A DNA stretch of 63,932 bases, counting the filler, from Nemertoderma westbladi (taxonomy: Eukaryota; Animalia; Xenacoelomorpha), in NCBI GenBank assembly GCA_032718475.1. It is 3 parts of 3 records of this genome, joined end to end, with 100 filler letters (N's around TTAATTAATTAA, not from the genome) between each part and the next. Parts side by side here need not be neighbours in the genome. Positions count along the whole stretch, not along the records: positions 18,664 to 49,078 come from JAUCBJ010005257.1; 2 more parts are not named here. One strand, 5' to 3'. Below, one piece after another: positions 4,020 to 60,330 of this stretch. The translations under genes were made by a program, and so were the position numbers. The stretch's first letter is position 1. The number at the start of each line of letters is the position of its first letter. A model generated the notes under the pieces. It did not search any database. It had not been told where the DNA came from and worked only from the letters and a program-made list of their open reading frames with translations.

Positions 4020-4633
4020 TTACAACACAACAAACAGCCTTTACGAAACACTGCCTAAGTGTAAACTAAGATATTAGGCCATCACAACCACGGATCGAAA
4101 CTTACGACATATCATAACGGCACCACCGTATTAAGCAGTCCAAACTGTAAACTAGACTTAATATTAAGCCCATATGAAACTCTCCACCAACCCTCCACAA
4201 ACTAGTCCATTTACAAAAGTACAAACAAACTTACTTTTTGCTAAATAGCTGAATTTCTCATGTAGCATCATTACGCAGATACAAGAACGCAAAATAACAC
4301 GAACATGTGGAACGTGGCGTGGCGTGGAACATGGCGTGGACAACACCAAATATATGTGTATGATGTGACATGATGTGACACACTTCTGACCAATTTTGAC
4401 AACAGTTGTTGCAGGAGTAGTGGTCGTGTTGACTAAGTATATTTTTTTTAATGAATAAATTTTATCTTTAATTAAAAATGTGCTGAAAATCTATTCACTG
4501 TGACTTTCCTTACCAAATAAGAGATATATTGTACAGAAACGTATAATAATTTTTATCGTTTTTGTAGCGTATTTATCTGTTATAGTGATTAACATCGTAT
4601 TATTTTCATTTCTAAACTATTAATTTTATGCAG

Positions 4634-4958
4634 TATAACCCTAAAGGTGTGGATAATGAGTACTACCAGCCCTCCAGTGAGTGGTTTGTAGAAACCGCAT
4701 ATGCCGATGAAGACGAATCACAATCTAAGGCTCGGATCATTTTAACTCTAAAAATAACTCGTAAATCCACCTTCTTCACATTTAACCTGATCCTCCCCTG
4801 CGGTCTGCTCACCGCTGTTATTGTCTTTTGCCAATATCTGCCTTGCACGTCGGGCCCACCAAAGGTACAAATAATCGTTTCATTATTTATGGCCATGGCG
4901 GTTTTTCTGTTGTTACTCAATGAAATTATGCCTAGTTCTGACGATCTACCGATTATTG
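4634..4958 (+). CDS. Cys-loop (nAChR-type) receptor subunit, alternative exon A: end of ligand-binding domain, M1, M2, M2-M3 loop
   Basis: Acceptor ttttatgcag|, donor G|GTAAGT; translation SSEW...LKITRKSTFFTFNLILPC...LPCTSGPPKVQIIVSLFMAMAVFLLLLNEIMPSSDDLPIIG; starts in phase 0, ends in phase 1, 325 nt. The acceptor position is less certain than the donor. Confidence 0.85.
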
Positions 4959-5515
4959 GTAAGTATTCCCCCGCTGCCCTCGTCCGCACCAAGCATGTCT
5001 GCTGGTTGGCAGCCCATTCAGCCCAAAATGTACATGCATTACTGTCTGTGTCTGCTACTCAGTTATTCACCAAACGTTTCCGTCAAATTAAAGTAAAAAT
5101 ATTAAGAATTCCCTGAATCATATAAAACTTTCAATAAATTTTCCAATTATGGATAAAAGTACCGGTAGTATTACTAATATTCCAATATTGTTGAAGACCA
5201 TATTATTATTATCAAAGACAAACAATATACTGACATGTATAACTAAAGATATAAGAAAAGAATCTAAAAAAACATTAAGTAAGAAAACATGACCATTTTG
5301 CCATATTCCAATTATTGATTGAATAAGTATAAAATATACAAGTACTTTCGATGCCCAAGGTTTTTTTATTTCAAGTTGTTTTTGCTTTATACGTAATATT
5401 TTTGGGTGTTTCAGACAATAACATGGACAGAATGCGTATACAAATTGGATTTTTACTTTTCATTTAATTTATTGCTTGTTTCACGTTTGTTTTTGTTTAA
5501 TTTTGCATCATTTAG

Positions 5516-5846
5516 GTTGATATGGAAAACTTTATAACTAGTTCCGAATGGATATTACATAACGCCTTCACCACACCCATGGTGACCTTTTACAATGACA
5601 CGGATTTAGCCCCGTACTATGCCGTTTATTTGACACTAAAATTAGAACGAAAGTCCAAATTCTTCACCTACAACCTCATTGTTCCATGCACAATGCTAAC
5701 CATCCTCATTTTATTGTGCCAATTCCTACCATGCACCAGCGGCCCAGCCAAAGTTCAGATTATCGTGGCACTATTCATGGCGATGGCAGTTTTCCTGGTT
5801 CTAGTTGGGAACATGATGCCTAGCAGTGATAGTGTTCCTATCTTGG
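5516..5846 (+). CDS. Cys-loop (nAChR-type) receptor subunit, alternative exon B (paralogue of exon A)
   Basis: T-rich acceptor catcatttag|, donor G|GTACGT; VDMENFITSSEW...PYYAVYLTLKLERKSKFFTYNLIVPC...SGPAKVQIIVALFMAMAVFLVLVGNMMPSSDSVPILG; phase 0 to phase 1, 331 nt. Confidence 0.9.
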
Positions 5847-8794
5847 GTACGTTCTAGAATGTTTTAAAAGCATCCCCTCTATGGTGTTTAAAGCATCCCC
5901 TCTATGGTGTTTAAAGCATCCATCCACCCAGTTATTTGTGCGTGTAACCGTATTTTTGTATATATCCTATTTCGGCTGTGATATTGTCTGCATTTCTCTG
6001 CCGATCTTTCTGCTCTTCTGCACAACAGGAACGGACACATTGCATGACGTCCAGACGGTGTAACGCACCAAACAATGGCAAAGCCGGTGTAAATATGGCG
6101 GTGTAAATATGGCACTTCGGAAAATTGTTATAAAGGTTGGATTCCCTTTCCCGATAGCATGGACCATTGTTATATACCAAGTGATCGCCTGAAACTACTG
6201 AAAGATTTTTGTTTTCATTTGAAATTGCATCCTACCACATTTAATTGGGGTTACCCTGATGCTGATATTTCGTGAGATCACTTATGAATTTTATTAATTG
6301 ATGATGTTACTAGAGATTTCCGATCATTTTAGTTTTAATGCGATCCTTATAAATTTCATGCATCCATTTTAGATGTAGTAAAATAAAAATTAGAAAATGA
6401 TTTTTAAAGAGGAAATTTTCAAAAGAAACTTTGATAATTTCACATATTTAATTGTTGATTCATGAGGTGTTCTCTATTTAATTGTTCATTCATGATTTCA
6501 TGCGATCAAACAGCTCATGCTTCATGCTATAGTCGCGGTTGGAATACACCTTTACCCATAGACCAACACAATATTGAACGATTTCTATTGGTGATAATTG
6601 AATATAACATTTTCTAATAGATATACCTGTATTTATTCTTCAGCTATAAATTATTTAAAAAAACTACTTCGTAGCTTAATAATGACATAAAGACATTGGG
6701 TGGCATAGGTCGTGTGAAATGGGTGAGATATAAAAATATTGCACTCCTAATAAATTATTACAAACTTCATTCAGTAGTCGTTTGCAAACTTGGAAAATTT
6801 GAAATTTAATATTCATTAATAATAATAAGATTGATTTATATTAATTATTACTTTTTAAAACAAATTCTAAAATTATATAATTATGCTACCAATTTAATTT
6901 GAGAATTCAAATTATATTTATTATTTGACTGCAAAGAAAATTTAAACTCACCCATATTTTTTAATTAATATTTTGTAATAACCCGTTGAGTGTAAGCAAA
7001 ATTTTCGAACCAAATCAATACACATTACCCTTACCAAAGATGCAGGTGAAAGTAACATATACGGGTTTTTCTAACCAAAACAATAAACTAAATAATCAAT
7101 TAAATATTAGGAAAAAACTGCAGGCATAATGATCTTAAAACTACTGCATACTATATATTTTGTATTTTAAAAACATATAAGTTATAACGTTAATAAACAT
7201 AAAATCAATCATGTTTGATAAAGAAAATAGTCGGCAACAAATATAATGAAGTTTTCCCAAGAAATATTCAAACGCCAAAAAAAATTTATTCCTAAAATCT
7301 TTTTTCCTTTCAACACTTTTCCAAAAAAAAAGCAACTAAACCCAAATATACAGACAAAATTTGCCAAATTGACGGTAAGCATTTTATTATAATGTGACTG
7401 CCAAAGAAAACGTAAATTCACTGAACAATTCACTCAAAACTTTGTCTGAAAAAAAATATTTTAGTAATACCAGGGGGAATATATCTGGTTAATTAATGCT
7501 AAATTTTGTTGACGATTCGTGATTTGAATAATGAATTTTGTGGCGCTCCACGAGAAAAGGGACCTTAACCGGTTTTTTCGAAATTTGAGTTAGGGGTTGA
7601 TTCAGATAGATAATATTTTTGACAGCATTTTGAAAAAAAATCTTTCGAATTGGTCAACTATTCGCAAAGTTATTCTAACTTATGTAAATGGTATCTGGTT
7701 AATAGCAAATTTTCAGAAACTGAGAAAAAGCACTTTAAAGTTCTACATCTTTTTTATCTTTTTATCAGTCTGTATGAATGTCTGTATGTCTGTCAAAAAA
7801 TAGGAAATGCTGACCAATTAACTGAAATTTACGCCCTTGGGGATTTCTCTAGTCGCTGATTTCATTTCCGATGTCAGTGTTCACATTTTATATAATGTAG
7901 ACTGTCTACATCACTAATTTATTTAAAAATGATGATAGCCCTACATTGTTAATGGTATAATCTTATATTTATAGCTGAATGAATGAATACCTGTAATAGG
8001 TTTGGTTAGTTTGAGGGAAGAGGGAAGATCGAGCTATTTTGGGGTGTTACACCGGGTATATTTTGTTATGGCAGCTGGTGTGTAGCCCAGAAATTTATGA
8101 CATAGACTCGCACCATCATGATCTCTTATTATAGTAGGCCATGGCACCATCTATGCTTTTAGTTTTCAATGTTGGATGTTCACGTAAATATTAATATTAT
8201 TTTTCTCAAATAGAATATATAACATAATATTATATAAATCGATAACTTATAATTAGTTCGAAAAAATATATCTATTTTTATATCCATTTCAATTTCTAAA
8301 ATATAAATATTCATATAATTTATATTTGCATGGTGAGGCATGATCTGCGTGAAATGAATTATAAAGTGCATCTCTCGAAATCGCACCTTCTCTGAAGTTT
8401 CAAAGAATAATGGGACATTCTAAAACCTCGGTAAACATATTCTAGTCAAAACCCACTTCTGAAATAAAAGCACAATTTCATATGTCTTTATAAATTCTGT
8501 CGGAATGAAACTAAACATCATCACGAATTTTTAACACTGTCCTGTTCACAGACTAGTACTCAGTCAGTCTAGTCGTAAGGCAATAATTTCATTGATCTAC
8601 GTGATAAGTTGAAGTCTAACGTACAATAACTAAGAAATAGCTGGATTTAGTAATATTCTCCCCTCTTGCTGTAAAACTGCCCGATCTTGTAGTAATGAAC
8701 CGATTGTGCAGACCTTTACTGTAATTTACCCTTTAATTGTCACGTCACAACAATCCTGTAAGCAACTGATTAATATTCACTTTTACGCAGGAGG

Positions 8795-12638: not shown

Positions 12639-13166
12639 CACTCGGCTGGTTGATTTGAATTCACATCTTATCGGAAGTCGTGGGTTCACCGCTCCTGATT
12701 ATCACAAAAGCTGAGCCTCGGTGGTTTGTCGCTCAAGTCGCAGATTACTAATACTAGAGTCGGCGATATTTTATTTCAGGAATGAAATTTCATATTATAT
12801 AGAAATAAAATAAGCTTTATATCCCGATATCTCTAAGCAAATTATGCAGTATATCCGGGTTCGGCGGGATTTAAAGCACTATTTTATGTTATCAATAATT
12901 ATTCTTCAACTTTACCTTATCGGCCCTCGGTCTTACTTATTGAGCTCACTCGTTAGGCTCGTTCGGTAAATAAGAGATGACTTTTTATTTGATTTTGGAC
13001 AAGCGGTATATAAAGACTTTTATCTACTGTACAATAAATAGTTAAATAATATATCGAACGACAGCACCCATTTTCGAAAATTTAAAAGAACTGTAATATT
13101 GTTTATGAGATACATACAGCGCCATACAGCGTTAATACACCGCCACCATTTTGCAATTTATTTTAG

Positions 13167-13783
13167 GTCTCTATTATGGTGCTAATATCCTACTGATTCT
13201 CATCGCAACAGCGATTAACGTTATCGTATTGAACATATGCAAGATGGACTGCGCGATGCCCCGGTGGGTTCGGGTGGTATTCCTGCACTACTTCGCGACT
13301 CTAACTCTCTACCCAAAACGGGCGAAGATTCCGCCGAAACAGAGTCGACATCACGTAAACTCTTCCGGGCGATGGGGCGACTCGCCGATCGCTTCCGACT
13401 CGATTCGGTTGCGGAACTTCTCCGGCGCAAACCGCGGCAATTCCTTCGACATCCACGGCAATGTGACCACGTCCTCGGCGATAGACTCGAGTCCGTTGCT
13501 AGGTGACGATAACTTCTACCTTATACAGAACATGCTGGACCAGATTCTGATGCATTTAGAACGATTTAACGCTAAACAAGCAAAGAAAGAAGAGAAGGCA
13601 GAGATCATTTCTGAGTGGGTTGATGTAGCGATTATAACGAATCGCTTGTTATTGTTTGCCTTTACTGTATTCGCGATAGCAATGACCGCTACCGTATTTC
13701 TCGGTTTCCCTCGAGAGTTAATTAACAATCAACAATCTGTGGAATTTAAAGAAAGAGACTTTAATGACACTAATAGTTTATAA
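13167..13783 (+). CDS. Cys-loop (nAChR-type) receptor subunit, terminal exon: M3, intracellular loop, M4
   Basis: Acceptor ttattttag| in phase 1, compatible with both exon A and exon B; LYYGANILLILIATAINVIVLNI (M3), MPRWVRVVFL, and EWVDVAIITNRLLLFAF (M4) match nAChR architecture; stop at 13781-13783. The N-terminal exons were not found in this window. Confidence 0.9.
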
Positions 13784-15713: not shown

Positions 15714-17061
15714 GTCTCACCTACCAAGTAGACTGGACAGCAGTAGTTACTGTCTGTATAGCTAGTCATATATATTTGATACAGACAGCCCAGCACTATT
15801 GTTTATACTTGCTCTGACAATATATATTTGATATTATTCCAGACGGCCCAGCACTATTGTTTGTACTTGGTCTGACTATATTATATTTGTTATTCCAGCT
15901 CTATCATATATATATTCGTGACCTCCATACCATTATTAGTTTCATATCAGCGATATTATTGCTAAGGTATTTAACTGAATATTATTAGTGAAATGCTCTG
16001 ATTTTATGACGACGAAAATGGTAGTAAGTTACGGGAAATCGTATCACGCACTCCAATCACGTGGATAATGAATAATTGCACGCAAATTTTCTGACACCCA
16101 CCCCGCAGAAACTTTATTTCCCGCAGAAACTTTATTTAATTATGATATATATGCATTAATGAATACCCCGCATCTCTGAATACAGTCTCTGTAATTATAT
16201 AGATTCTACATCAAGGGAATACATCAGTATTAATGTAAGAATTGTTTAAAAGTAAGTAATTTTCAAACGCTACTCCGTTTTAATCATATCGCTAAAATAA
16301 TCATAATCAGCTCTTATTTGCGTCCATTTTTCCCCAGAGATGAATTAATATCTATGTTTAACCATGCTAGTGATGTTTTATCATTTCTTCTATAACTGTA
16401 TTGAATATTATTATTAAATGAGTCCATAGAGCTCAATATATTAATCAATTGCTTGTCATGATTATAATAGGGTTTTATCTCGAATTATACAAGCGGCATT
16501 ATAAAATCTGCAAGTCTATTAGGAACTCTACAGCTTGAAGAGAGCCAGCCTACGCACGCATGAGACAGGACTGTTACGCCGCTATAAACCATGGCGTGGA
16601 TAGGAATTAATACGCATTAGTTGAGCATACCCCAGAGCAATCTGTAGGAACCAGATGGGCCTAATAATCGGGTATATATGATAAGTGGGCAAAAATATAT
16701 AAGAAATTGTCTTTGACAAGAATAAATAACTCGTATTAGAATCTTTTCTGCTGTAAATAATGTGCTGTGTATGTAACTCGTTCTCACAAGGTTGGGTTGT
16801 AGTTAAATCATATTTTAATATTAAAATAGTTCACTATTGTTGGAGTATATATATTTTCAGTTTATTAGTTCCAGTTATAAATCATATTATATTTTCACTT
16901 TTCGAGATTTTTTTCCTTACACACCAAATTTGTAAACATTATTCTTTCAGAATAATTTTTCTTTAGCACCATTGTATGGTTTTTCTCTTGTCTTAATTTT
17001 ATTCTAACGCACTATAATTATTTATTTTATTATTTTTGATATTTGTTAAAATATTTAAATA

Positions 17062-18015
17062 ATGTCATTCAATGAAAGTAACCTTCATCCACGGTTGTTT
17101 TGGAAGCTTATATATGTTATCAGTTTGGCATACTCACTGACACTGTTGTATATCTTATGGCAAGACATAGAGACAGTAAGGGCTTTGTTGTCACGTGTGG
17201 AGTTTACCGCAGACATAACTGAGAAAAACCATCAACATGGTTTCTTCACTGTAAATGATGGCGCTGATGACTGCAACAACGTAACTTGGCAACGAATTTT
17301 CGCGAATATCGATATTTTCGCGGTAAGTCACGCTGGTGGATGGTTGATCGTCGCACTATTCTTAAGAAATATTTACGTTTCCTTGACTTTGAGTGTAACT
17401 TGGGAAGTAACGGAAATAATATTTTCGCATCTGGTTCCAATATTCCCGGAATGTTGGTGGGATAAAGTTATATTTGATTGCCTTCTATGTAACGGGTGTG
17501 CTATTTATTTAGCCACATTTATTTCTCGCAAGCTTCACTTAACATCGTACGACTGGTCGAGAGTTGAAACTGCAAAACGCAAAGTGACGATATTTAACAT
17601 TCTCGGATTTTCATCACAATTGAAAGGACGTAGTTTAGAAATTATTTCGTTATTCCAGATATACGTGCTTTTGGAAACTTCCCAATTATGTATATGTATT
17701 TTACAAGTTGTTTTAGATTTTCCCGTAAACCACGGATTCCTTTTAGCTAGGTATATTCTCGTCATGTTAACGGGCGCCCCTGCAGCAGAAGGATTTTATC
17801 GCTATTACTCTGATAACAATTGCAAAAACATTGGCAAACAGGCGTCAGTTTTAATAACATTGCTTGCGCTAGAAATCGCAATATGCCTAAGACACGGACA
17901 CCATCTGTTTACGTTTTTTGATATAGGTTATGTAATTGTTTGGTTATCTATGCTGATGTGTGCCGCTTGTCTAACAGTCTACGCCACAAGCAGTAACATG
18001 CACGTAACATTTTAG
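17062..18015 (+). CDS. Phosphatidylserine synthase (PTDSS1-like base-exchange enzyme), divergent, single ORF, 317 aa
   Basis: Motifs HP..FW, DIFAVSHAGGW, TWEVTE and FPECWWDKVIFDCLLCNG align with PTDSS1 (DIFAFGHFWGW, TWELTE, NFAECWWDQVILDILLCNG); several hydrophobic segments; no introns within the ORF. Confidence 0.85.
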   Translation: MSFNESNLHPRLFWKLIYVISLAYSLTLLYILWQDIETVRALLSRVEFTADITEKNHQHGFFTVNDGADDCNNVTWQRIFANIDIFAVSHAGGWLIVALFLRNIYVSLTLSVTWEVTEIIFSHLVPIFPECWWDKVIFDCLLCNGCAIYLATFISRKLHLTSYDWSRVETAKRKVTIFNILGFSSQLKGRSLEIISLFQIYVLLETSQLCICILQVVLDFPVNHGFLLARYILVMLTGAPAAEGFYRYYSDNNCKNIGKQASVLITLLALEIAICLRHGHHLFTFFDIGYVIVWLSMLMCAACLTVYATSSNMHVTF

Positions 18016-22283: not shown

Positions 22284-22425
22284 AGGTCAGTGACCTGTTC
22301 TGTGTCCTACGTGACACAAAATGCTCGTTACAGTGAGTCATGACGTCACGCACTACTTGAAGATAAGTCATCGGAATATTGTTCATTGAGTGATGACGTA
22401 ACGCTTCGTTCTTCCCATTGGTTGT
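22284..22425. promoter_or_regulatory. Cluster of transcription-factor consensus motifs
   Basis: Perfect IR1 AGGTCAgTGACCT (22284-22296), abutting TGAGTCA and TGACGTCA (22334-22348), TGACGTAA (22394-22401), reverse CCAAT (22417-22421). Function is inferred only. Confidence 0.45.
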
Positions 22426-22613
22426 CTCCTTTCAGTCCGTTTGATTCGACCGTTGCATTTAAAAACTATAATTTATATCAACTAACTTCGTTCCATCAAC
22501 TGTAAAAACAAATACAACGGCGAAAAGAAGAAGTTTATTGCAAAAAGTCAAAGGAAACCCCCAAAACATGATCAAAATAAATTTCTGTAAAACGACTCCG
22601 TTAAATCCAACCG

Positions 22614-23610
22614 CTAGGAACTGGGAAGATCTTCTACTCGGATGGTAGTGGCGTTGCTAGGGAGGTCAGCGTTACTAGGGGGGGCGGAGCTGCTAGGAGG
22701 GATAGCGATAGCGCCACCTGCTGGGAATCCGGACGGTAGCACTATAACTTGGGCGCTGGGGGCGATGGTGCCACCCTGGGCGAGGACAGCGGCAGTGGCG
22801 GCGGTCCAGGCCGCGCCACCGGGCTCCAATACCGCCGCCGCGTTAAGTGGCGCTGTAGTAATCTGCTGCTCGGTGGCGTTCACTGTTGGCGCCGCCGGGG
22901 CAGGGTGCGCCACAGCCGCCGGTGCTGTGCCACTGTCCACGAACCGCGGTATGTCCTCGGGCAGCGGCAGTGCGGCCGCCTCTCGCAGCGGGAGCGCGTA
23001 CTCCGGCAGCGGGTCCGTCTGGGACAGCGTAGACGTGACCATGACGTGATCCACCAGAGCCCAGCCACCCATGTTCTTCCGCCGCCGACCGGGCGACAAC
23101 TTCTGCCCGTGGAACGCGTGCAGATGGTGTTTGAGAGCGCTCTTAGAGCAAAGAATCTTCTCGCAGGTGGGACAACGACACGCGGAACGCTGCTTAAACA
23201 ACAGACGTTCCTCTTCCGTGCCGTGATCCTTAATCACATGATCCTTTAGTTGTTGCTGAACGCGATACGATTTATCGCAGACTTCGCACGAGAAGGGTCG
23301 CTCGCCACTGTGGATACGCAGGTGGCTTGTCATGTGACGCAGCTGCTCGCAACTGTAGTTACAGAAACCGCACTGGTGGTGCTTCTGTCCCTTGTGAGTC
23401 TCGAGATGGGTGAGCAATGAATATCGATCGGAGAACTGGGTGTCACAGAACTTACACTTCATTGGGACCACGGACGTGTGGAGTTTAAGGATGTGCTGCT
23501 TGAGGTCGGACTTCCGACCACAGGTTGTATCGCAGTACTCACACTGGTAACGCGGTTTATTCCCGGTGTGGCCCATTAAGTGCTGCTTCATGCTGCCATT
23601 CTGCGTGAAC
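22614..23610 (-). CDS. CTCF: CTCF coding exon 2 (second half of ZF6 through ZF11, Ala/Pro-rich tail)
   Basis: Acceptor tttgtttcag| ends at 23611; reads (R)[44 protein letters not shown] and so on, matching CTCF fingers; phase 2 agrees with exon 1; stop at 22614-22616. Confidence 0.93.
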
Positions 23611-24065
23611 CTGAAACAAACGAGTTACAGTTACAAAATGTATGACGTTGGAATATTCGGCGTACTCTTCGGTATTAAATTCTTCGCTAAGATAGAAGTT
23701 CCCCGGAGAAAGTAAGTAAGGGACGTCTTAATTTGTGACCAAAATAGATAATTACCTGGAAATAAACCTATAAAACTATGAAACAAAATAGAAAATATTA
23801 CTTAGAAAGGAGAAGTAAAAAAAATGTTCTGACGTGATGTGGATTGAGACGAGGTAACATAATGATTGGATTGGATCAAAAGGCGTAGCATCGCTGAGTT
23901 TCTCACTAATTTATGATCATTATGGTGACTATTGCAATTAAACAACTTTGTTTAAGTTTCGTATCTGATTCTCAATAATTAAACGTAAATGTTAACCACT
24001 GTGTACCCGGTATATAACTACCAACGCTGAGTTTATGCAGCTTGTGGAGTGGAAACAGTGTTGGT

Positions 24066-26043
24066 ACACCGGACACTGGTACGGTTTAACTTACCTCGCG
24101 TGACATACCGGACACTGGTACGGTTTAACTTACCTCGCGTGACACACCGGGCACTGGTGTACGGTTTAACTTACCTCGCGTGACACAACGAGCACTGGTG
24201 TACGGTTTAACTTACCTCGCATGACACACCCGACACTGGTACGGTTTAACTTAGCTCGCGTGACATACCGGACACTGGTACGGTTTAACTTACCTCGCGT
24301 GACATACCGGACACTGGTACGGTTTAACTTACCTCGCGTGACACAACGAGCACTGGTGTACGGTTTAACTTACCTCGCATGACACACCCGACACTGGTAC
24401 GGTTTAACTTACCTCGCGTGACACAACGAGCACTGGTGTACGGTTTAACTTACCTCGCATGACACACCCGACACTGGTACGGTTTAACTTACCTCACGTG
24501 ACACACCGGGCACTGGTGTACGGTTTAACTTACCTCGCGTGACACAACGAGCACTGGTGTACGGTTTAACTTACCTCGCGTGACACACCCGACACTGGTA
24601 CGGTTTAACTTACCTCGCGTGACACATCGGGCACTGGTGTACGGTTTAGCCTACCTCGCGTGACACACCGGGAACTGGTGTACGGTTTAACTTAACTCGC
24701 GTGACACACCGGGAAGTGGTGTACGGTTCAACTTAACTCGCGTGACACAACGAGCAGTGGTGTACGGTTCAACTTAACTCGCGTGACACACAGGGCAGTG
24801 GTGTACGGTTCAACTTAACTCGCGTGACACAACGAGCACTGGTGTACGGTTTAACTTAAAACTCGCGTGACATACCGGACACTGGTACGGTTTAACTTAC
24901 CTCGCGTGACACACCGGGCACTGGTGTACGGTTTAACTTAACTCGCGTGACACACCGGGCAGTGGTGTACGGTTTAACTTACCTCGCGTGACACACCCGA
25001 CACTGGTACGGTTTAACTTACCTCGCGTGACACAACGGGCACTGGTGTGCGGTTTAACTTAACTCGCGTGACATACCTAACACTGGTACGGTTTAACTTA
25101 CCTCGCGTGACACACCGGGCACTGGTGTACGGTTCAACTTAACTCGCGTGACACAACGGGCACTGGTGTACGGTTTAACTTAACTCGCGTGCCACACCCG
25201 AACCTGGTGTACGATTTAACCTACCTCGCGTGACACACCGGACACTAGTACGGTTTAACTTACCTCGCGTGACACACCGGACACTGGTACAGTTTAACTT
25301 AACTCTCGTGACACAACGGGCACTGGTGTACGGTTCAACTTAACTCGAGTGACACACACGACACTGGTACCATTTAACTTACCTCGCGTGACACGCCCGA
25401 CACTGGTACGGTTTAACTTACCTCGCGTGACACACCGGGCACTGTTGTACGGTTTAACTTAACTCGCGTGACTCACCCGACACTGGTGTACGATTTAACC
25501 TACCTCGCGTGACACACCGGACACTAGTACGATTTAACCTACCTCGCGTGACAACACTAGTACGGTTTAACTTACCCCGCGTGACACACCGGGCACTGGT
25601 GTACAGTTTAACTTAACTCTCGTGACACAACGGGCACTGGTGTACGGTTCAACTTAACTCGCGTGACACACCCGACACTGTTACCATTTAACTTACCTCG
25701 CGTGACACACCCGACACTGGTACGGTTTAACTTACCTCGCGTGACACACCGGGCACTGGTGTAAGGTTTAGCCTACCTCGCGTGACAAACTGGGCAACGG
25801 TGTACGATTTAACCTACCTCGCGTGACACACCCGACACTAGTATGGTTTAACTTACCTCGCGTGACACAACGAGCACTGGTGTACGGTTTAACTTTACTC
25901 GCGTGACACACCGGACACTGGTACGGTTTAACTTACCTCGCGTGATACACCGGACACTGGTACGGTTTAACTTACCTCGCGTGACACACCGGACACTGGT
26001 ACGGTTTAACTTACCTGGCCTGACACACAGGACACTGGTACGG
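24066..26043 (-). repeat. 39/41-bp tandem array, about 48-50 units, copying the CTCF exon 1 end plus splice donor
   Basis: Minus-strand unit gtaagttaaaccgtaccagtgtccggtgtgtcacgcgag; continuous with the real junction ...CCGTACCAGTGTCCTGTGTGTCAGGCCAG|GTAAGTT at 26015/26014. Confidence 0.95.
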
Positions 26044-27177
26044 CTTCTCTCCGGTGTGGGTTTTCAAATGTCGCTTCAGTTTAAAGTTATCGGCGCAGGA
26101 ATACGAGCAGAGATCGCATTTAAACGGCCGATCGCCAGTGTGGCTGCGTAGATGCCGCTTCAGCTTACTGATTTCCACACTCGCGTACTCACAGTGGGTG
26201 CACTTGTGCGGCTTGTAGAGCGTGTGTCTGTAGCGCTGATGGCGCGTCAACTCCCCTTTGGTAACGAAAGCCTGCACGCAGTGCTCGCAGCGGTGCGGCT
26301 TGGAGCCGGTGTGGATGTGCATGTGCTGGTAGAGAAGGGATTGGAAGCGGAAAGTGCGGTCGCAGTTGGGACACTTGTGCGGCCGTTCTCGGTAGTGGGA
26401 TCGGAGGTGTTTCTCTAAGGTCTCCTGACTAAGGGCCGCGTAGTTGTTGCAGATCTCGCATTGGAAGACCTGTGAGTGGTTGGCAGCGTCGATGTCGTTG
26501 TGAATCTGCTTATAAACATCGTAACGGATTTCTTTACGGATTCCAACATCTTCTTCTTCTTCTTCCTCTTCTCCCGATCCCTCATTGTCGCTGCTGTTAT
26601 TACCGGTTTCGTCGACTTCCGCCGCACCTTCCGTCTCCTCGTCTGGTTCATCGTCGGGGAACTCGTAGATCTCGGCGTTGGCTGTTACGGACGGAGTCGG
26701 AGGCGGTTCGTCTTTAACGCGAACGTCAGTGGCAACGTTCGCCGAACTGTGGCCGCCAGGAGGCGCTGACAGTCTGTCTTGTTGCAGCTGGGAGCCCAGC
26801 AACCCCCCGGCCGTGATGCTGGCCACCGGTATGTTAACGACCCGGCCCTCCGTATCCACCATGACCAGACTGAGGACCTCTCCCTCCCCGGTCACAGTGC
26901 CCACCTGGGGCTGCAGCACGATCGGTTGGTTGGAGCCGTCGACCCCAGAGATCTGGATGGGAGTGCCGAGAGTAAAGCTAGACCCGATCCCCAGCGAGGT
27001 CGCGTCCACGGTCGACATAGAGAAAGCGACAGGCGGTGGGGACGCAGACGGTAGCGGGCCAACCTCTTCATTGTCCACCAAGTAAGCGCCTTGCGGTAAC
27101 TGGTTGGAAAATGTTTCAAGGAAATTGTTAACATCAATTCCTTGGTATGTAGGATCACCTCCGGTTGATTCAGCCAT
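26015..27177 (-). CDS. CTCF: CTCF coding exon 1 (N-terminus, ZF1-5, first half of ZF6)
   Basis: AFVTKGELTRHQRYRHT, YASVEISKLKRHLRSHTG and FKLKRHLKTHTGEKPY are CTCF ZF3-5 signatures; acidic YEF motif corresponds to the cohesin-binding YxF; donor AG|GTAAGT. Spliced CDS is 2160 nt (719 aa) with 11 C2H2 fingers. Confidence 0.95.
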
Positions 27178-28849
27178 TGATAAATACTAGGCCTATCTAT
27201 TAATTCAGTTTAAATTGTATTACAAGTATTAGGATGTTAGCAGGTTAGGCCTACGATAAACCAGAATGTATGTATGTATATACCGTGTTATATACTGATA
27301 AAAGATCCAGGGATCAGTCAGACAGTCCGTACCGGTACTCACTACTCAGTTAGTCTGTAGATCAGTAGATAGTACTGTAGTGTAGTAGTATGATGTTGAT
27401 AAGTAAAAACAAATGCTAATCCAAATAAAGTAGGTAGTAGAACAAACAAGCAGACAAGAGTTAAACATTTTTTTTTATTTAAGTACCGCTAATTATATTG
27501 AAATTGAATCCATTACAAATACGAACAAGGCGTTTTAGCACCCGTTGGTCCGATTATGCAGTAAATAAACGAATTATTATGCACACGCAAACTGGCAAAA
27601 TTAAGTGAAATTTCAGAATTAGTTATATATGTATAAAAAATAAGTAGAAAGAAAAAATAAAAATAGATTACGACCTTAGCAGATTAAGTCAATTCAGTAA
27701 AAACAAATTTTAACGAGTTTAAAAAATATTTCCATAAAATTAAAATTAAGTACCTACCGCGCTACCGGTAATTGTTATATACATAAAAAATACGAACGTG
27801 GCGCTATAAATTAATATTAGGCCTAAACCGGTAGTCAGGCAGTCAGGTAGTGGGTATTTATTGCTGTTACCTTATTGCTACCAGGACCAGCTACCACAAC
27901 GACGGATAACATTTCAATGGTAAATTTTTAATGTTTAATGTTTTATAATTTACGGGTGTAGAAAGAAATATCTTATAAGGCACCCACTAACAAAATACAA
28001 GTTATCGGAAGTCGTCATAGTACCAAGTAAAAATAATGAACACCAACATAGATACACAACGATATATTTACCACGTTCACAAAATTTATATAATAAAACT
28101 ACAGTAGTGTTGCTACAGTGTTCAGTATTACGTGTAACCTAAAATGGATATAAATGTTTATGTGTACAGTAGATTAAAAACGGCAATAGTAACGTATATA
28201 CTGTGGAGTGAGCAATGAGTAAAACCAACATAAATACAAATAAAAAATAATAAAAATTAAAATAATAGGCCTATATTCTAAACATATTGCGTCAGTAGTA
28301 CGGTACTGTATATTAATTTTAAAGCAAATTTTGATATTAATTTTTTGTGTAAAGATAGATTAAAACATCAATACTACATGACTACATGTAGAGAAATCAA
28401 ATAATAAACCCAACATCATACTGTATATTTACAATATAATAAGATTACAAATTAAAAAATAAATTTAAAAATTTTAAAAACTTTATTGCGATAGTATAAA
28501 ATAGGCTAAAAATTATATGAACATAATTGTTACAGTAGATTAAAACATCATTATATACATTCGATAATAGTAAGAGATACGACGGTATATAGTGGAAGCA
28601 ATAAAAACCAACATACAATATAATATTTACTAATTCACGAAACTTAATTACACTAGTATAAAATAATGCAAAGTAATTCTAAAAGGGTTGAGACAATTAA
28701 TATAGAAAATAAAAACTAAAATATGACACATTAAATAAAATATCTGCTATGAAACATTCAAATATTGATGTGTGGAGAGACGAGAGAGAGTTAGTGAAAT
28801 AAAATATGGCATTGATTAAATAAAATATAATACAGTAAATTTAAGGGCC

Positions 28850-39155: not shown

Positions 39156-39239
39156 GTTAGAATATATTTCTTCTGTAATGCGAAGGTATTGTTTGTTGCT
39201 TTTTGTTTGTTTTAGAACATGTTTGTATCTCTTTGTGGG

Positions 39240-40030: not shown

Positions 40031-40172
40031 TGGCTCTACTTAGTCTGCCTGTAGTGCTAATGTTGTTTCGGTAACTTACCTGAACTGAAGGCCTCTACTA
40101 GAGGCAGAAAGCTTGTAACTGTCACTTTATCTTTTGTTTGTGGGGGTCTGCCTTTCTGTATGTATCTTTCTA

Positions 40173-43100
40173 TGTTTGTATCTGTTTGTTTTAGGTAATG
40201 CTTGTATCTGTTTGTTTTAGGTAATGTTTGTATCTGTTTGTTTTAGGTAATGCTTGTATCTGTTTGTTTTAGGTAATGCTTGTATCTGTTTGTTTTAGGT
40301 AATGCTTGTATCTGTTTGTTTTAGGTAATGTTTGTATCTGTTTGTTTTAGGTAATGCTTGTATCTGTTTGTTTTAGGTAATGCTTGTATCTGTTTGTTTT
40401 AGGTAATGCTTGTATCTGTTTGTTTTAGGTAATGCTTGTATCTGTTTGTTTTAGGTAATGCTTGTATCTGTTTGTTTTAGGTAATGTTTGTATCTGTTTG
40501 TTTTAGGTAATGCTTGTATCTGTTTGTTTTAGGTAATGTTTGTATCTGTTTGTTTTAGGTAATGCTTGTATCTGTTTGTTTTAGGTAATGCTTGTATCTG
40601 TTTGTTTTAGGTAATGCTTGTATCTGTTTGTTTTAGGTAATGCTTGTATCTGTTTGTTTTAGGTAATGCTTGTATCTGTTTGTTTTAGGTAATGTTTGTA
40701 TCTGTTTGTTTTAGGTAATGTTTGTATCTGTTTGTTTTAGGTAATGCTTGTATCTGTTTGTTTTAGGTAATGCTTGTATCTGTTTTAGGTAATGCTTGTA
40801 TCTGTTTGTTTTAGGTAATGCTTGTATCTGTTTGTTTTAGGTAATGCTTGTATCTGTTTTAGGTAATGCTTGTATCTGTTTGTTTTAGGTAATGCTTGTA
40901 TCTGTTTGTTTTAGGTAATGTTTGTATCTGTTTGTTTTAGGTAATGCTTGTTTCTGTTTGTTTTAGGTAATGTTTGTATCTGTTTGTTTTAGGTAATGCT
41001 TGTATCTGTTTGTTTTAGGTAATGTTTGTATCTGTTTGTTTTAGGTAATGTTTGTATCTGTTTGTTTTAGGTAATGCTTGTATCTGTTTTAGGTAATGCT
41101 CGTATCTGTTTGTTTGAGGTAATGCTTGTATCTGTTTGTTTTAGGTAATGCTTGTATCTGTTTTAGGTAATGCTTGTATCTGTTTTAGGTAATGCTTGTA
41201 TCTGTTTGTTTTAGGTAATGCTTGTATCTGTTTGTTTTAGGTAATGCTTGTATCTGTTTTAGGTAATGCTTGTATCTGTTTGTTTTAGGTAATGCTTGTA
41301 TCTGTTTGTTTTAGGTAATGCTTGTATCTGTTTGTTTTAGGTAATGCTTGTATCTGTTTGTTTTAGGTAATGCTTGTATCTGTTTTAGGTAATGCTTGTA
41401 TCTGTTTGTTTTAGGTAATGCTTGTATCTGTTTGTTTTAGGTAATGCTTGTATCTGTTTGTTTTAGGTAATGTTTGTATCTGTTTGTTTTAGGTAATGTT
41501 TGTATCTGTTTGTTTTAGGTAATGTTTGTATCTGTTTGTTTTAGGTAATGTTTGTATCTGTTTGTTTTAGGTAATGCTTGTTTCTGTTTGTTTTAGGTAA
41601 TGTTTGTATCTGTTTGTTTTAGGTAATGCTTGTATCTGTTTGTTTTAGGTAATGCTTGTATCTGTTTGTTTTAGGTAATGCTTGTATCTGTTTGTTTTAG
41701 GTAATGTTTGTATCTGTTTGTTTTAGGTAATGCTTGTATCTGTTTGTTTTAGGTAATGCTTGTATCTGTTTGTTTTAGGTAATGCTTGTATCTGTTTTAG
41801 GTAATGCTTGTATCTGTTTGTTTTGGGTAATGCTTGTATCTGTTTGTTTTAGGTAATGCTTGTATCTGTTTTAGGTAATGCTTGTATCTGTTTGTTTTAG
41901 GTAATGCTTGTATCTGTTTGTTTTAGGTAATGTTTGTATCTGTTTGTTTTAGGTAATGCTTGTTTCTGTTTGTTTTAGGTAATGTTTGTATCTGTTTGTT
42001 TTAGGTAATGCTTGTATCTGTTTGTTTTAGGTAATGTTTGTATCTGTTTGTTTTAGGTAATGTTTGTATCTGTTTGTTTTAGGTAATGCTTGTATCTGTT
42101 TTAGGTAATGCTTGTATCTGTTTGTTTGAGGTAATGCTTGTATCTGTTTGTTTTAGGTAATGCTTGTATCTGTTTTAGGTAATGCTTGTATCTGTTTGTT
42201 TTAGGTAATGCTTGTATCTGTTTGTTTTAGGTAATGCTTGTATCTGTTTGTTTTAGGTAATGCTTGTATCTGTTTGTTTTAGGTAATGCTTGTATCTGTT
42301 TTAGGTAATGCTTGTATCTGTTTGTTTTAGGTAATGCTTGTATCTGTTTGTTTTAGGTAATGCTTGTATCTGTTTGTTTTAGGTAATGTTTGTATCTGTT
42401 TGTTTTAGGTAATGTTTGTATCTGTTTGTTTTAGGTAATGTTTGTATCTGTTTGTTTTAGGTAATGTTTGTATCTGTTTGTTTTAGGTAATGCTTGTTTC
42501 TGTTTGTTTTAGGTAATGTTTGTATCTGTTTGTTTTAGGTAATGCTTGTATCTGTTTGTTTTAGGTAATGCTTGTATCTGTTTTAGGTAATGCTTGTATC
42601 TGTTTGTTTTAGGTAATGCTTGTATCTGTTTGTTTTAGGTAATGCTTGTATCTGTTTTAGGTAATGCTTGTATCTGTTTGTTTTAGGTAATGCTTGTATC
42701 TGTTTGTTTTAGGTAATGTTTGTATCTGTTTGTTTTAGGTAATGCTTGTTTCTGTTTGTTTTAGGTAATGTTTGTATCTGTTTGTTTTAGGTAATGCTTG
42801 TATCTGTTTGTTTTAGGTAATGCTTGTATCTGTTTTAGGTAATGCTTGTATCTGTTTGTTTTAGGTAATGCTTGTATCTGTTTGTTTTAGGTAATGCTTG
42901 TATCTGTTTGTTTTAGGTAATGTTTGTATCTGTTTGTTTTAGGTAATGTTTGTATCTGTTTGTTTTAGGTAATGTTTGTATCTGTTTGTTTTAGGTAATG
43001 TTTGTATCTGTTTGTTTTAGGTAATGCTTGTATCTGTTTGTTTTAGGTAATGCTTGTATCTGTTTGTTTTAGGTAATGCTTGTATCTGTTTGTTTTAGGT

Positions 43101-44223
43101 AATGCTTGTATCTGTTTGTTTTAGGTAATGCTTGTATCTGTTTGTTTTAGGTAATGTTTGTATCTGTTTGTTTTAGGTAATGCTTGTATCTGTTTGTTTT
43201 AGGTAATGCTTGTATCTGTTTGTTTTAGGTAATGCTTGTATCTGTTTGTTTTAGGTAATGTTTGTATCTGTTTGTTTTAGGTAATGTTTGTATCTGTTTG
43301 TTTTAGGTAATGTTTGTATCTGTTTGTTTTAGGTAATGCTTGTATCTGTTTGTTTTAGGTAATGCTTGTATCTGTTTTAGGTAATGCTTGTATCTGTTTG
43401 TTTTAGGTAATGCTTGTATCTGTTTGTTTTAGGTAATGCTTGTATCTGTTTGTTTTAGGTAATGCTTGTATCTGTTTGTTTTAGGTAATGCTTGTATCTG
43501 TTTGTTTTAGGTAATGTTTGTATCTGTTTGTTTTAGGTAATGTTTGTATCTGTTTGTTTTAGGTAATGTTTGTATCTGTTTGTTTTAGGTAATGCTTGTA
43601 TCTGTTTGTTTTAGGTAATGTTTGTATCTGTTTGTTTTAGGTAATGCTTGTATCTGTTTGTTTTAGGTAATGTTTGTATCTGTTTGTTTTAGGTAATGCT
43701 TGTATCTGTTTGTTTTAGGTAATGCTTGTATCTGTTTGTTTTAGGTAATGCTTGTATCTGTTTTAGGTAATGCTTGTATCTGTTTGTTTTGGGTAATGCT
43801 TGTATCTGTTTGTTTTAGGTAATGCTTGTATCTGTTTGTTTTAGGTAATGCTTGTATCTGTTTGTTTTAGGTAATGTTTGTATCTGTTTGTTTTAGGTAA
43901 TGCTTGTATCTGTTTGTTTTAGGTAATGTTTGTATCTGTTTGTTTTAGGTAATGCTTGTATCTGTTTGTTTTAGGTAATGTTTGTATCTGTTTGTTTTAG
44001 GTAATGTTTGTATCTGTTTGTTTTAGGTAATGCTTGTATCTGTTTGTTTTAGGTAATGTTTGTATCTGTTTGTTTTAGGTAATGCTTGTATCTGTTTGTT
44101 TTAGGTAATGCTTGTATCTGTTTGTTTTAGGTAGTGCTTGTATCTGTTTGTTTTAGGTAATGCTTGTATCTGTTTGTTTTAGGTAATGTTTGTATCTGTT
44201 TGTTTTAGGTAATGCTTGTATCT
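40173..44223 (+). repeat. 26-bp (some 22-bp) tandem array, about 155-160 units, copying the TTF2 intron 2 acceptor plus exon 3 start
   Basis: Unit gtaatgcttgtatctgtttgttttag; the last copy is the real junction tgtttgttttag|GTAATGCTTGTATCTCTAAAG at 44208/44209. Confidence 0.97.
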
Positions 44224-44366
44224 CTAAAGGCTGGTGGCGTTGGAGTTAATCTCATTGGCGGTAGTCATTTATTTCTCACTGATATGCATTGGAACCCCCA
44301 ACTGGAGGAACAGGCCTGTGATAGAATATACCGAGTGGGTCAGACGAGGGAAGTTTTCATTCACAG
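44209..44366 (+). CDS. TTF2: TTF2 exon 3
   Basis: [45 protein letters not shown] (helicase motifs V and VI); phase-0 start; donor AG|GTGGGT in phase 2. Confidence 0.93.
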
Positions 44367-57732: not shown

Positions 57733-57950
57733 ATAGAAAAAAAAATTAAAAACTAATTTAATTGAGAATCAACTGTCACATGTACAGATGTATGTATACA
57801 GGTATAGGCCTACCGGAACTCTGAAAAGGCTGGAGGCCTCCAAACTGCCAAACCTGCAAACAGGCAGACAGGATAGAGCTTTCATTTGAGAGAAGTTGCA
57901 TGTTTATTCGGCTTAGGCCTATCCATTTATTAAGTTTTAATTTTTGAATT

Positions 57951-60330
57951 ATGGGTAAAAAAGGGAAATCTAAAATTAAAGTCACTAACAAATCTATGAA
58001 AGGGGTTAGTCGTCTCAGCAAGACGAAACGACGAGAAAAAAATGCAATTAGATCACAGATAATGAAACGGAAATCTGATGAGAGAAGTGGAGAAAGTCGA
58101 CAGATGGTCGATAAAGAAGTGGAAGTTAGCGACAATTCTGATATAGACGATTATATCGATAATATAGGGATTGGGGAGCCGGTGAATGTTTCAGCTAGGA
58201 AGGGAGACCGGAATGGTAAGAAACGGCGTCGTATAGAAACCCAATACCGGTACCCCTCTAGTTCCGAAGAGGAGTATGACAAATGGGATGAAAAGTTTTA
58301 TACTGTGGAAAGTAAATTCGTTACCGGAGAAACAACTTCCGTTGTTCCGTTACTTCCGGTTAAGTTTGGCAATAAACTTGTTCGTCAATCGATGGTTCTA
58401 CCCAATACGAAATGTACGAATGAAAGCGATGAAGACGCTGAAGGTGACGTCATTGAATCAGATGATGATGTCATCAATTCGGATGGTGACGTGATTAACT
58501 CCGATTGTAGCGAAGAATCGCCCATTGAACCCCGATCCGCCGTTGAACTCTACGCCGAACGAGTGCGGCAACTGGCTGACAGTAAATCCCGGATGGGTTG
58601 GCTCTGCTGCCAGATAACTCAGGACCCGGACAGCAGCGGGAAGAAACTGAAGGAGATGCGAGGCTTCCTGGGTGTCGTCGACCCCGTCCTCAGGGTCTCC
58701 TTAGCCAGACTGGCGGCTCTCTCGCTCTGCGAAGTCTTCAAGGACATTCTCCCGGATTACCGGATTATAAGTCCAAATTCCGGAGGGGAAAAACTCAGCA
58801 AAGATATTCGCGGTCTGCGGGACAGAGAGGCGAGTTTACTTAGGAACTATCAATTGTATCTGGGGAAACTGGATGTGTTTATACGGAGTGGGTTGGGTAA
58901 AGGTGTGGTGAAAGGGGATAGTAGGGGGTGGATGGATGGAGAAGGAGGGTATTAAACATGGTACCGGTAACGAGTCTCTGGCTATCTGTTCTGTGTTCTG
59001 TTTGTGCGAATTACTTAGAGATAAACCGCAGTTTAACTTCCGTAACAACATCGTATTAACCCTCGTCCCGATAACCGCTTCTAAATGCGCCGCGGCCGCT
59101 AATAAATCCCGAGAAACATTCGAGTTGATCTTCGCTGAGGATAAAAGCGGCGAGTTATCCCTGGAGGTTGTCCGAAACCTCGGTAAGTTTCTCAAGGATA
59201 AACACTTCGACGTAAATCCTCGGTGCCTTGACGTCTTCCTTAAACTCGACCTCCGGGATGCGGAGGCGCCGGGTTCGAATCCTGCTAAGCGCCGTAAAGA
59301 GGAGAAAGTCGGGTTGTCTAGGAGACAGAGACGGGAGCTGAAAGAGCGCAGTAAATGGGACGCCGAGTTATTGGAGATTGACGCCGAGGAGTCCGAGGAG
59401 AAGAAGTCGAGATTCCACGCCGAGATCGTCAAGCACTTGTTCTACACCTACTTCCGGGTCCTCCGAGCTCCTTCCCGGATACTCGTACCTTCCGCTCTCG
59501 AGGGTCTCGGTAAGTTCTCCCATCTCATCAACATCGACTTCTTCGACGATCTTCTATCTCTACTGAACAGTTTGGTTGAGTCGAGTGACTCATTTGAGTC
59601 GGGTCTATCAACTTCCGGTTTAAATCGACGGGATAGTTTGAACTGTTTATTAACTGTCTTCCGGATTCTCTCTGGGCAAGGTGAAGCGATTCTAGTAGAT
59701 CCAACTAACTTCTATAGACTTCTCTACAACATCTTGTTCAACTGCGGTGACAATGTGGATGACGTTGAACTCCTCGTGAAGGTGATGGACGCGATGTTTC
59801 TCCGTCGGATGAAACTAAACCCTCCCCCGCGTCTGTGCGCCTTCATTAAGAGACTATCATCGGTGGCGCTACACCAACCCCCACCCACCGCGCTGGTCTT
59901 CCTCTACCTAGGGCGATCGTTGTTGCTACGCAACTCTGCCACTCAGACACTATTGGACACGGACACCGAGTCGGCCGCTGGAGGGCGCTATCTTCCTTTG
60001 CTAGGAGACCCAGACCGTTGTGAGGCGGTCGCCACGGCGCTCTGGGAACTGGCGGCTCTGGAGCGGCATTGGGCCCCGTGCGTGCGCCCCCTAGCGGCGC
60101 ATATCGTACGTGGTTGTCCGACCCAGTCCCATGGCCGAGGGTCCCTACCCATAGCTATGTATTCCAAGTCTCCTTCCGAACTTCTGTTTGTTTACAGGAA
60201 CTACAATCGGGACGGTTTGCTGATGCGGGAATCTCAAAACCGTAAAACTTATCCGCGTGTTTGTAGAACCGATAATCGTGATTGGCTGAAGGAATATATG
60301 ACTCATACACTAGCATCGTTGATTGGGTAA
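57951..60330 (+). CDS. NOC3L: Nucleolar complex protein 3 homolog, present as two overlapping ORFs (57951-58955 and 58936-60330) separated by one frameshift
   Basis: LLPVK, SLCEVFKDILPDYRI, LCELL...FNFRNNI, YFRVL, LEGLGKFSHLINIDFFDDLL, RLCAFIKRL and ALWEL..L.RH are NOC3/CBF motifs; both halves are otherwise uninterrupted. Confidence 0.88.

Follow-up and report, generated by a model that had tools for sequence, protein, structure and literature searches.

The only coding intron of the CTCF gene of Nemertoderma westbladi is filled, over about 81% of its length, by tandem copies of the end of the preceding exon and of its own 5′ splice site, and the one spliced transcript seen uses the genuine first donor. 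The array is most likely a minisatellite that arose by local tandem duplication across the exon 1 donor and expanded without a job of its own, and its copies are likely ignored, because the transcript seen is spliced at the first donor. The window referred to below is the whole stretch of 63,932 nucleotides that was analysed; positions count along it, and slashes in motifs mark splice junctions. Contigs of the DNA runs X1, X2 and X3, and of run X4, recorded as 'DNA?', were compared with it.

The CTCF gene and its single coding intron

A minus-strand gene of the window encodes a predicted protein of 719 aa with 11 C2H2 fingers in CTCF order and a YEF motif ahead of ZF1, for which human CTCF is the top solved-structure match (E 2e-56). 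In a 32-row tree (21 CTCF-type and 10 other zinc-finger proteins, picked out of 240 fetched) the CTCF clade holds this protein with support 100/99, on a long branch (1.22), and by these sequence criteria the gene is a CTCF orthologue. Coding exon 1 spans 27177-26015 and coding exon 2 spans 23610-22614, separated by an intron of 2,404 bp (26014-23611) that interrupts ZF6. The gene and the array within it are laid out as follows.

26015-27250, minus strand: CTCF exon 1, with the ATG at 27177, the N-terminus, the YEF motif, ZF1-5 and half of ZF6; recognised by its ORF and fingers and present in the X4 contig
26008-26046, minus strand: founder unit, the last 32 exon bases and the real donor CAG/GTAAGT, with the first intron base at 26014; junction seen in the X4 contig
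26011-26013, minus strand: in-frame TAA met by any transcript passing the first donor, giving a 388-aa product
24066-26007, minus strand: downstream copies of the exon end and donor, 48 full and one partial, 32 with GT and 16 without; repeat contigs in X1-X3
23611-24065, minus strand: unique 3′ part of the intron, with a pyrimidine tract and the acceptor TTTCAG/; spanned by single contigs in X1-X3
22614-23610, minus strand: CTCF coding exon 2, with the rest of ZF6, ZF7-11, the C-terminus and a TAG; its start is the loose end of the X4 contig

Exon 1 is long, at about 1.24 kb, and the size of the X4 contig suggests a 3′ UTR reaching down to about 21520. The protein shares with bilaterian CTCF the number and order of its fingers, the YxF motif before ZF1 and ZF4-7 helices close to those of vertebrate and protostome CTCF, but it differs in its long branch and its identity of at most 53% in the tree alignment, in a ZF1 with 13 instead of 12 residues from Cys to His, and in having one coding intron only. 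Identity to named CTCFs is at most 61%, with no close named relative among them, and the database search returned no full-length protein of the same gene or of a close relative. The gene looks intact and constrained, since 11 of the 12 coding differences among X1-X3 are synonymous. A second CTCF-like contig of X4 lies on window positions 26082-26171, with a depth of 52; it was not seen in the DNA runs and may derive from a paralogue or from another organism.

Layout of the donor array

The initial annotation had described the intron as filled by tandem copies of a 39/41-bp unit made of about 32 exonic and about 7 intronic nucleotides, and this description stands: Tandem Repeats Finder returns a period of 39/41 with 49.4 copies (24066-26039, score 2586), and the count by hand gives a unit of 32 exon bases followed by GTAAGTT, with 48 full copies and a 22-nt partial copy past the real donor. 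Its extent, initially given as 24066 to 26043, is right at the far end, but the array starts at 26046. The units run head to tail from a founder that lies across the genuine exon-intron boundary. Among the 48 copies, 26 carry a 2-base insertion (41 bp), and the 22 others comprise 20 of 39 bp, one of 33 bp and one with TT added. The splice signal is kept in many units, although not in all, as 26 copies read GTAAGT and six GTAGGT or GTAGGC, while the 16 that have lost the GT read TTAAGT (13 copies) or otherwise (three); these are the donor variants reported at the outset. The view of the copies as duplicates of the exon end is correct as far as the unit goes, but no copy is exactly identical to the real donor site, with G at −3 in 48/48 copies and C at the real donor only. 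Reading on past the first donor gives AGG TAA at once, as previously noted, and the resulting product is cut inside ZF6, after its two Cys.

At its far end (24045-24073, minus strand) the array closes in a partial unit whose last bases form, together with the unique intron, a short inverted repeat (CAGTGT ... ACACTG), and the original start of the intron may for this reason have been lost. Recursive splice sites, defined by a pyrimidine tract and YAG immediately 5′ of GT, were considered for the CTCF array and rejected, because its units read GAG/GT and lack a pyrimidine tract or acceptor-like sequence. Intron birth by AGGT duplication was also examined: the spliced CTCF junction reads AG/GT, and the acceptor region contains no junction copies.

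Contig support for the array

The array is backed by contigs of the DNA runs; support from raw reads had been named as a point on which its reality could fail. In X1, X2 and X3 there are contigs that run from exon 1 into the repeat and others that run from the last units through the unique intron into exon 2, with deep repeat contigs between the two array edges, and these rule out an assembly artefact. X1 is possibly the window's own source, whereas X2 and X3 come from a single sample of a different study. Because they depart from the window at several positions, they provide independent support; the GT-less, TT-insertion and 41-bp variants are also present in X2. The copy number of 48 is that of the assembly and lies beyond what short-read contigs can confirm, as repeat-to-flank depth ratios vary between runs, even between X2 and X3 of the same sample, and contig depth is not a copy number. 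DNA depth over ZF1-5 is flat in X1, X2 and X3 at 80% likeness, with no close CTCF paralogue seen.

Which donor is used

X4 appears to be RNA-derived, judging by its content: it contains 0.49 of the sampled words of 22300-27400, against an exons-only expectation of 0.499. The run search returned no run recorded as RNA that contains the locus, a result that carries no weight on expression. A single X4 contig of 3,330 nt, with a depth of 338, matches 26013-27250 with no differences and then runs on into the start of exon 2, which makes it the first-donor junction. The main transcript, as seen in one contig of this one RNA-like run, which is all the RNA evidence here, therefore uses the genuine first donor. 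The check proposed initially, for junctions from internal donors, thus finds the first donor in the sole spliced form seen; neither of the two X4 contigs at the locus contains repeat units or a repeat-donor junction, although contigs drop rare forms, filtering of matches can remove even the 3,330-nt contig, as it did in one comparison, and NMD would hide products of later donors.

The real donor is the only CAG/GTAAGT at the locus, and its predicted U1 duplex is the best one, at −12.1 kcal/mol, versus −10.7 for the commonest copy. RNA structure hiding the copies was considered and discarded: the array shows no stronger folding than shuffled sequences (z +0.69), and predicted openness gives the real donor no advantage, since 23, 23 and 9 of the 32 GT-bearing copies equal or exceed it for the three window sizes used.

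Known relatives of the array

The donor array in CTCF belongs to an already known class, the exon-intron-spanning minisatellites, which includes the 'mirages' of amphioxus and those of human F7, 6-16, CBS, LMNB2 and PDGF. The literature searched held no report of a minisatellite in a CTCF intron, and the available part of PMC10078293 contains nothing on junction-spanning repeats. Mirages are described, in the sections consulted of PMC3087553 and PMC3902484, in amphioxus Adh3, the globins BflGb6 and BflGb9, troponin C and PGBD5, where they leave splicing undisturbed; the Adh3 mirage is reported there to show length polymorphism and somatic instability. Like the CTCF array, they consist of tandem units that span an exon-intron boundary, with the splice signal in many but not all units, normal splicing and cluster edges outside homogenisation, and both donor and acceptor ends can be duplicated. 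The copy number differs, with 48 copies in N. westbladi CTCF versus 3 and 6 in the BflGb6 haplotypes of those accounts.

The human donor-spanning VNTRs, as presented in the portions consulted of PMC1557585, are those of F7 intron 7 (37 bp, 5-9 units), 6-16 (25 pseudo-sites), CBS intron 13 (15-20), LMNB2 and PDGF. They resemble the CTCF array in having a first unit that lies across the donor, further pseudo-donors within the intron, and use of the most upstream site; in F7, with its 5-9 identical donors, splicing takes only the most upstream one, and stronger sites further down compete with it only if they are perfect. The CTCF unit is mostly exon (32/39 bp), whereas theirs are mostly intron, and the F7 pseudo-sites are equal to their real site and weak (CV 74; same source), in contrast to CTCF copies that are near-consensus, differ at −3 and lack the GT in a third of cases. 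By analogy, the CTCF array would share a layout that is known to do no harm to lancelet genes or to human F7, LMNB2 and PDGF.

Variation among the copies

The CTCF donor copies do not look maintained, and nothing in their sequence points to a function, although the tests on array variation treat the copies as independent, which they are not, and are indicative only. Minor alleles are distributed evenly among codon positions (11:10:12 distinct ones), and the donor columns vary about as the rest of the unit does (mean minor count 3.25 vs 3.58), so that in this within-array test of one species the donor positions are not conserved above their surroundings, the criterion used for AS-NMD. The G at +1, lost in 16/48 copies, is the second most variable of the 39 columns. 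Both unit types include copies with T at +1 (10/26 long and 5/22 short units), which points to mixing between units. Shared variants and mosaic units, together with the occurrence of the exon bases at −30, −6 and −3 in 0/48 copies, show that the boundary copy has been left out of this turnover. A concentration of donor loss near the exon was also considered and rejected, as units with an intact GT are spread over the array without a trend (rho 0.09, p 0.55); copies 1, 2 and 4-8 keep the GT.

Third-position divergence of the exon end

At −30, −15, −6 and −3 the end of exon 1 departs from the consensus of the array, and all four are third codon positions. The probability of such third-position-only divergence is 0.006 for 4/4 and 0.024 for the three fixed sites, both values being post hoc, and with a spread of 5.5-7.3% among copies, fewer than three fixed changes in 10 third positions would be expected (binomial p 0.015-0.03). 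At −15 the array base persists in the exon of X2 and X3, and at −6 the array codes for His, the commonest residue there (64/124 motif matches, against 11 with Gln, in the 240 fetched zinc-finger proteins, not all of them CTCF). For these two reasons the array likely keeps the older exon end, and the exon itself may have changed afterwards; the array base looks older at −6 and −15, while −30 and −3 give no direction. Pure neutrality does not account for the third-position-only pattern, given its post hoc probabilities; it may reflect selection for an exon end distinct from the decoys, a higher mutation rate next to the unstable repeat, or chance.

A mirror acceptor array and its surroundings

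The largest array in the window lies 14 kb from that of CTCF and mirrors it at an acceptor.

40172-44223, plus strand: acceptor array of a TTF2-like SNF2 helicase gene, about 158 copies of a 26-bp unit spanning the acceptor, the last of which (AG at 44207-44208) opens a coding exon (44209-44366); known from sequence only

The unit consists of a pyrimidine tract, an AG and then GTAATG, which is the layout of a recursive splice site (pyrimidine tract and YAG before GT), and the upstream copies lead to a stop. The last acceptor is identical to 85 of the 156 copies scored. Splicing to an early copy would rebuild CAG/GTAATG, with slightly better predicted U1 pairing than the intron's real donor (−8.1 vs −7.1 kcal/mol), and a wrong acceptor choice might for this reason be correctable by re-splicing. 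A lone decayed copy of the acceptor and exon start lies at 39200-39232 (plus strand), about 60 bp past the donor at 39156 and 1 kb ahead of the array; this copy may be the trace of an older form of the intron, which was short.

The window as a whole is repeat-rich, with 13 arrays of at least 100 bp making up 14% of its bases. Two of seven junctions scanned have junction copies, the CTCF donor and the TTF2-like acceptor, in a scan in which the donor of TTF2 intron 3 was placed one base off and its acceptor only roughly. One of the 12 other arrays would cover a splice site by chance with a probability of roughly 5-10%, so a genome-wide tendency to junction-spanning arrays is hinted at, not shown.

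Elsewhere in the window, a NOC3-like gene (57948-60327, plus strand) is read in two frames that overlap, with a G-rich stretch near 58880-58960 linking them, which may be a short intron, an insertion or an assembly slip. Transmembrane exons of a ligand-gated ion channel lie at 4616-5854 and 13136-13780 (plus strand); the first transmembrane part occurs in two similar copies, separated by about 900 bp, which would be either a duplicated exon or two genes. A phosphatidylserine synthase ORF at 17059-18015 (plus strand) is apparently intronless and has no database match at 1e-40, in line with a fast-evolving, intron-poor genome.

Explanations for the array

The model that we favour proposes that a 39-bp duplication of the exon end and donor put an extra copy in the intron and left the reading frame intact, and that slippage and unequal exchange then amplified and mixed the units, with the exon end staying outside this mixing. 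The spliceosome would commit to the first donor that it meets, helped by the best U1 match of that site, and the rare use of a later donor would lead to the same stop in ZF6, its products being likely removed by NMD from copy 2 on. Among the options offered by the initial annotation, mere tolerance is thus favoured by the first donor seen in the transcript, the unconserved donor columns and the harmless precedents, whereas dosage control through NMD and a five-finger isoform are much less likely. Some observations sit less well with a tolerated array: its 32 GT-bearing copies are near-consensus donors, stronger than the F7 pseudo-sites, and the long exon 1 may weaken exon definition. According to the portions consulted of PMC1557585, human 6-16 and CBS use two pseudo-sites each, and in F7 minigenes with perfect downstream sites the weaker first site lost 70-90% of splicing. 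The RNA evidence comes from the contigs of one 'DNA?' run, from which rare forms are dropped, and NMD would conceal products of later donors.

It could instead be argued that the array burdens splicing and that the exon end was selected to differ from it, the silent changes, above all the C at −3, keeping the real donor the best partner of U1 and lowering its identity to the repeat, while donor-dead units spread. This is what the restriction of all four differences to third codon positions would suggest, with exon bases found in no copy at −30, −6 and −3, array bases that look older at −6 and −15, fixed changes in excess of the spread among copies and a +1 position second in variability; but the numbers are small, the tests post hoc and −30 and −3 without direction, and a similar picture would be given by an old array with a recent expansion, or by a higher mutation rate next to an unstable repeat, with coding constraint acting as a filter. 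Intact donors, moreover, are not depleted beside the exon, and the last TTF2-like acceptor, identical to so many of its copies, indicates that a sequence advantage may be unneeded. We regard such selection as rather unlikely. The same low standing, that of an outside chance, is given to its boldest form, in which the array would preserve an older CTCF exon end like a fossil and burden the gene permanently with 32 strong donors in competition with the real one; the exon would have escaped them through silent changes, with its C at −3 giving the sole perfect match to U1, so that repeat-born decoys would drive synonymous evolution of a zinc-finger exon and a small leak to copy 1 would yield a five-finger CTCF.

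Regulated unproductive splicing is less probable still and would be a surprise here: later donors, used at a set rate, would tune the CTCF dose via NMD, or copy 1 would yield a stable 388-aa five-finger protein with the YxF motif. All later donors do converge on one stop, folding leaves the copies exposed, with a predicted openness like that of the real site, and human 6-16 and CBS use nearby pseudo-sites (PMC1557585, portions consulted). The NMD rule, as given in the sections consulted of PMC8339359, places the junction 50-55 nt past the stop; copies 1 and 2 lie on either side of it, and if this animal follows the rule, copy 2 onward would fall under it, at 75 nt or more past the stop, whereas copy 1, at 36 nt, would not. 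However, the same sections state that a long 3′ UTR can trigger decay without a junction complex, so that copy 1 products may be unstable, and the 388-aa product is without ZF6-7, part of the core-binding set ZF4-7 (PMC4840295, in the part consulted). No such junction occurs among the contigs seen, the donor columns are not conserved, one alternative donor would suffice, to which 48 copies add nothing obvious, and the literature searched held no report of truncated CTCF isoforms with NMD. Most improbable of all is an origin of the unit in a diverged CTCF paralogue, from which conversion or recombination at the junction common to both would have brought it in. Differences confined to third positions are typical of paralogues, and the second CTCF-like contig of X4 (347 nt, 16 differences in 90 aligned bases, with a loose end that reads as ZF4) could represent one, but it may belong to another organism, the flat depth over ZF1-5 in X1-X3, at 80% likeness, shows no close paralogue in the DNA runs, the array adjoins the exon in exact register, and the base at −15 is common to the array and to living alleles of the exon.

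Significance

With its long first exon, its 32 near-consensus donors in competition with the real one and one stop that marks every error, the CTCF locus offers a natural test of 5′ splice-site choice. The presence of two junction-spanning arrays within 20 kb suggests that this genome may be rich in them and could make it fit for a genome-wide count. Within CTCF, the third-position pattern is the one point worth following: if the silent changes at the exon end were selected, they would provide a rarely seen example of synonymous sites in a key chromatin gene being shaped by a repeat.
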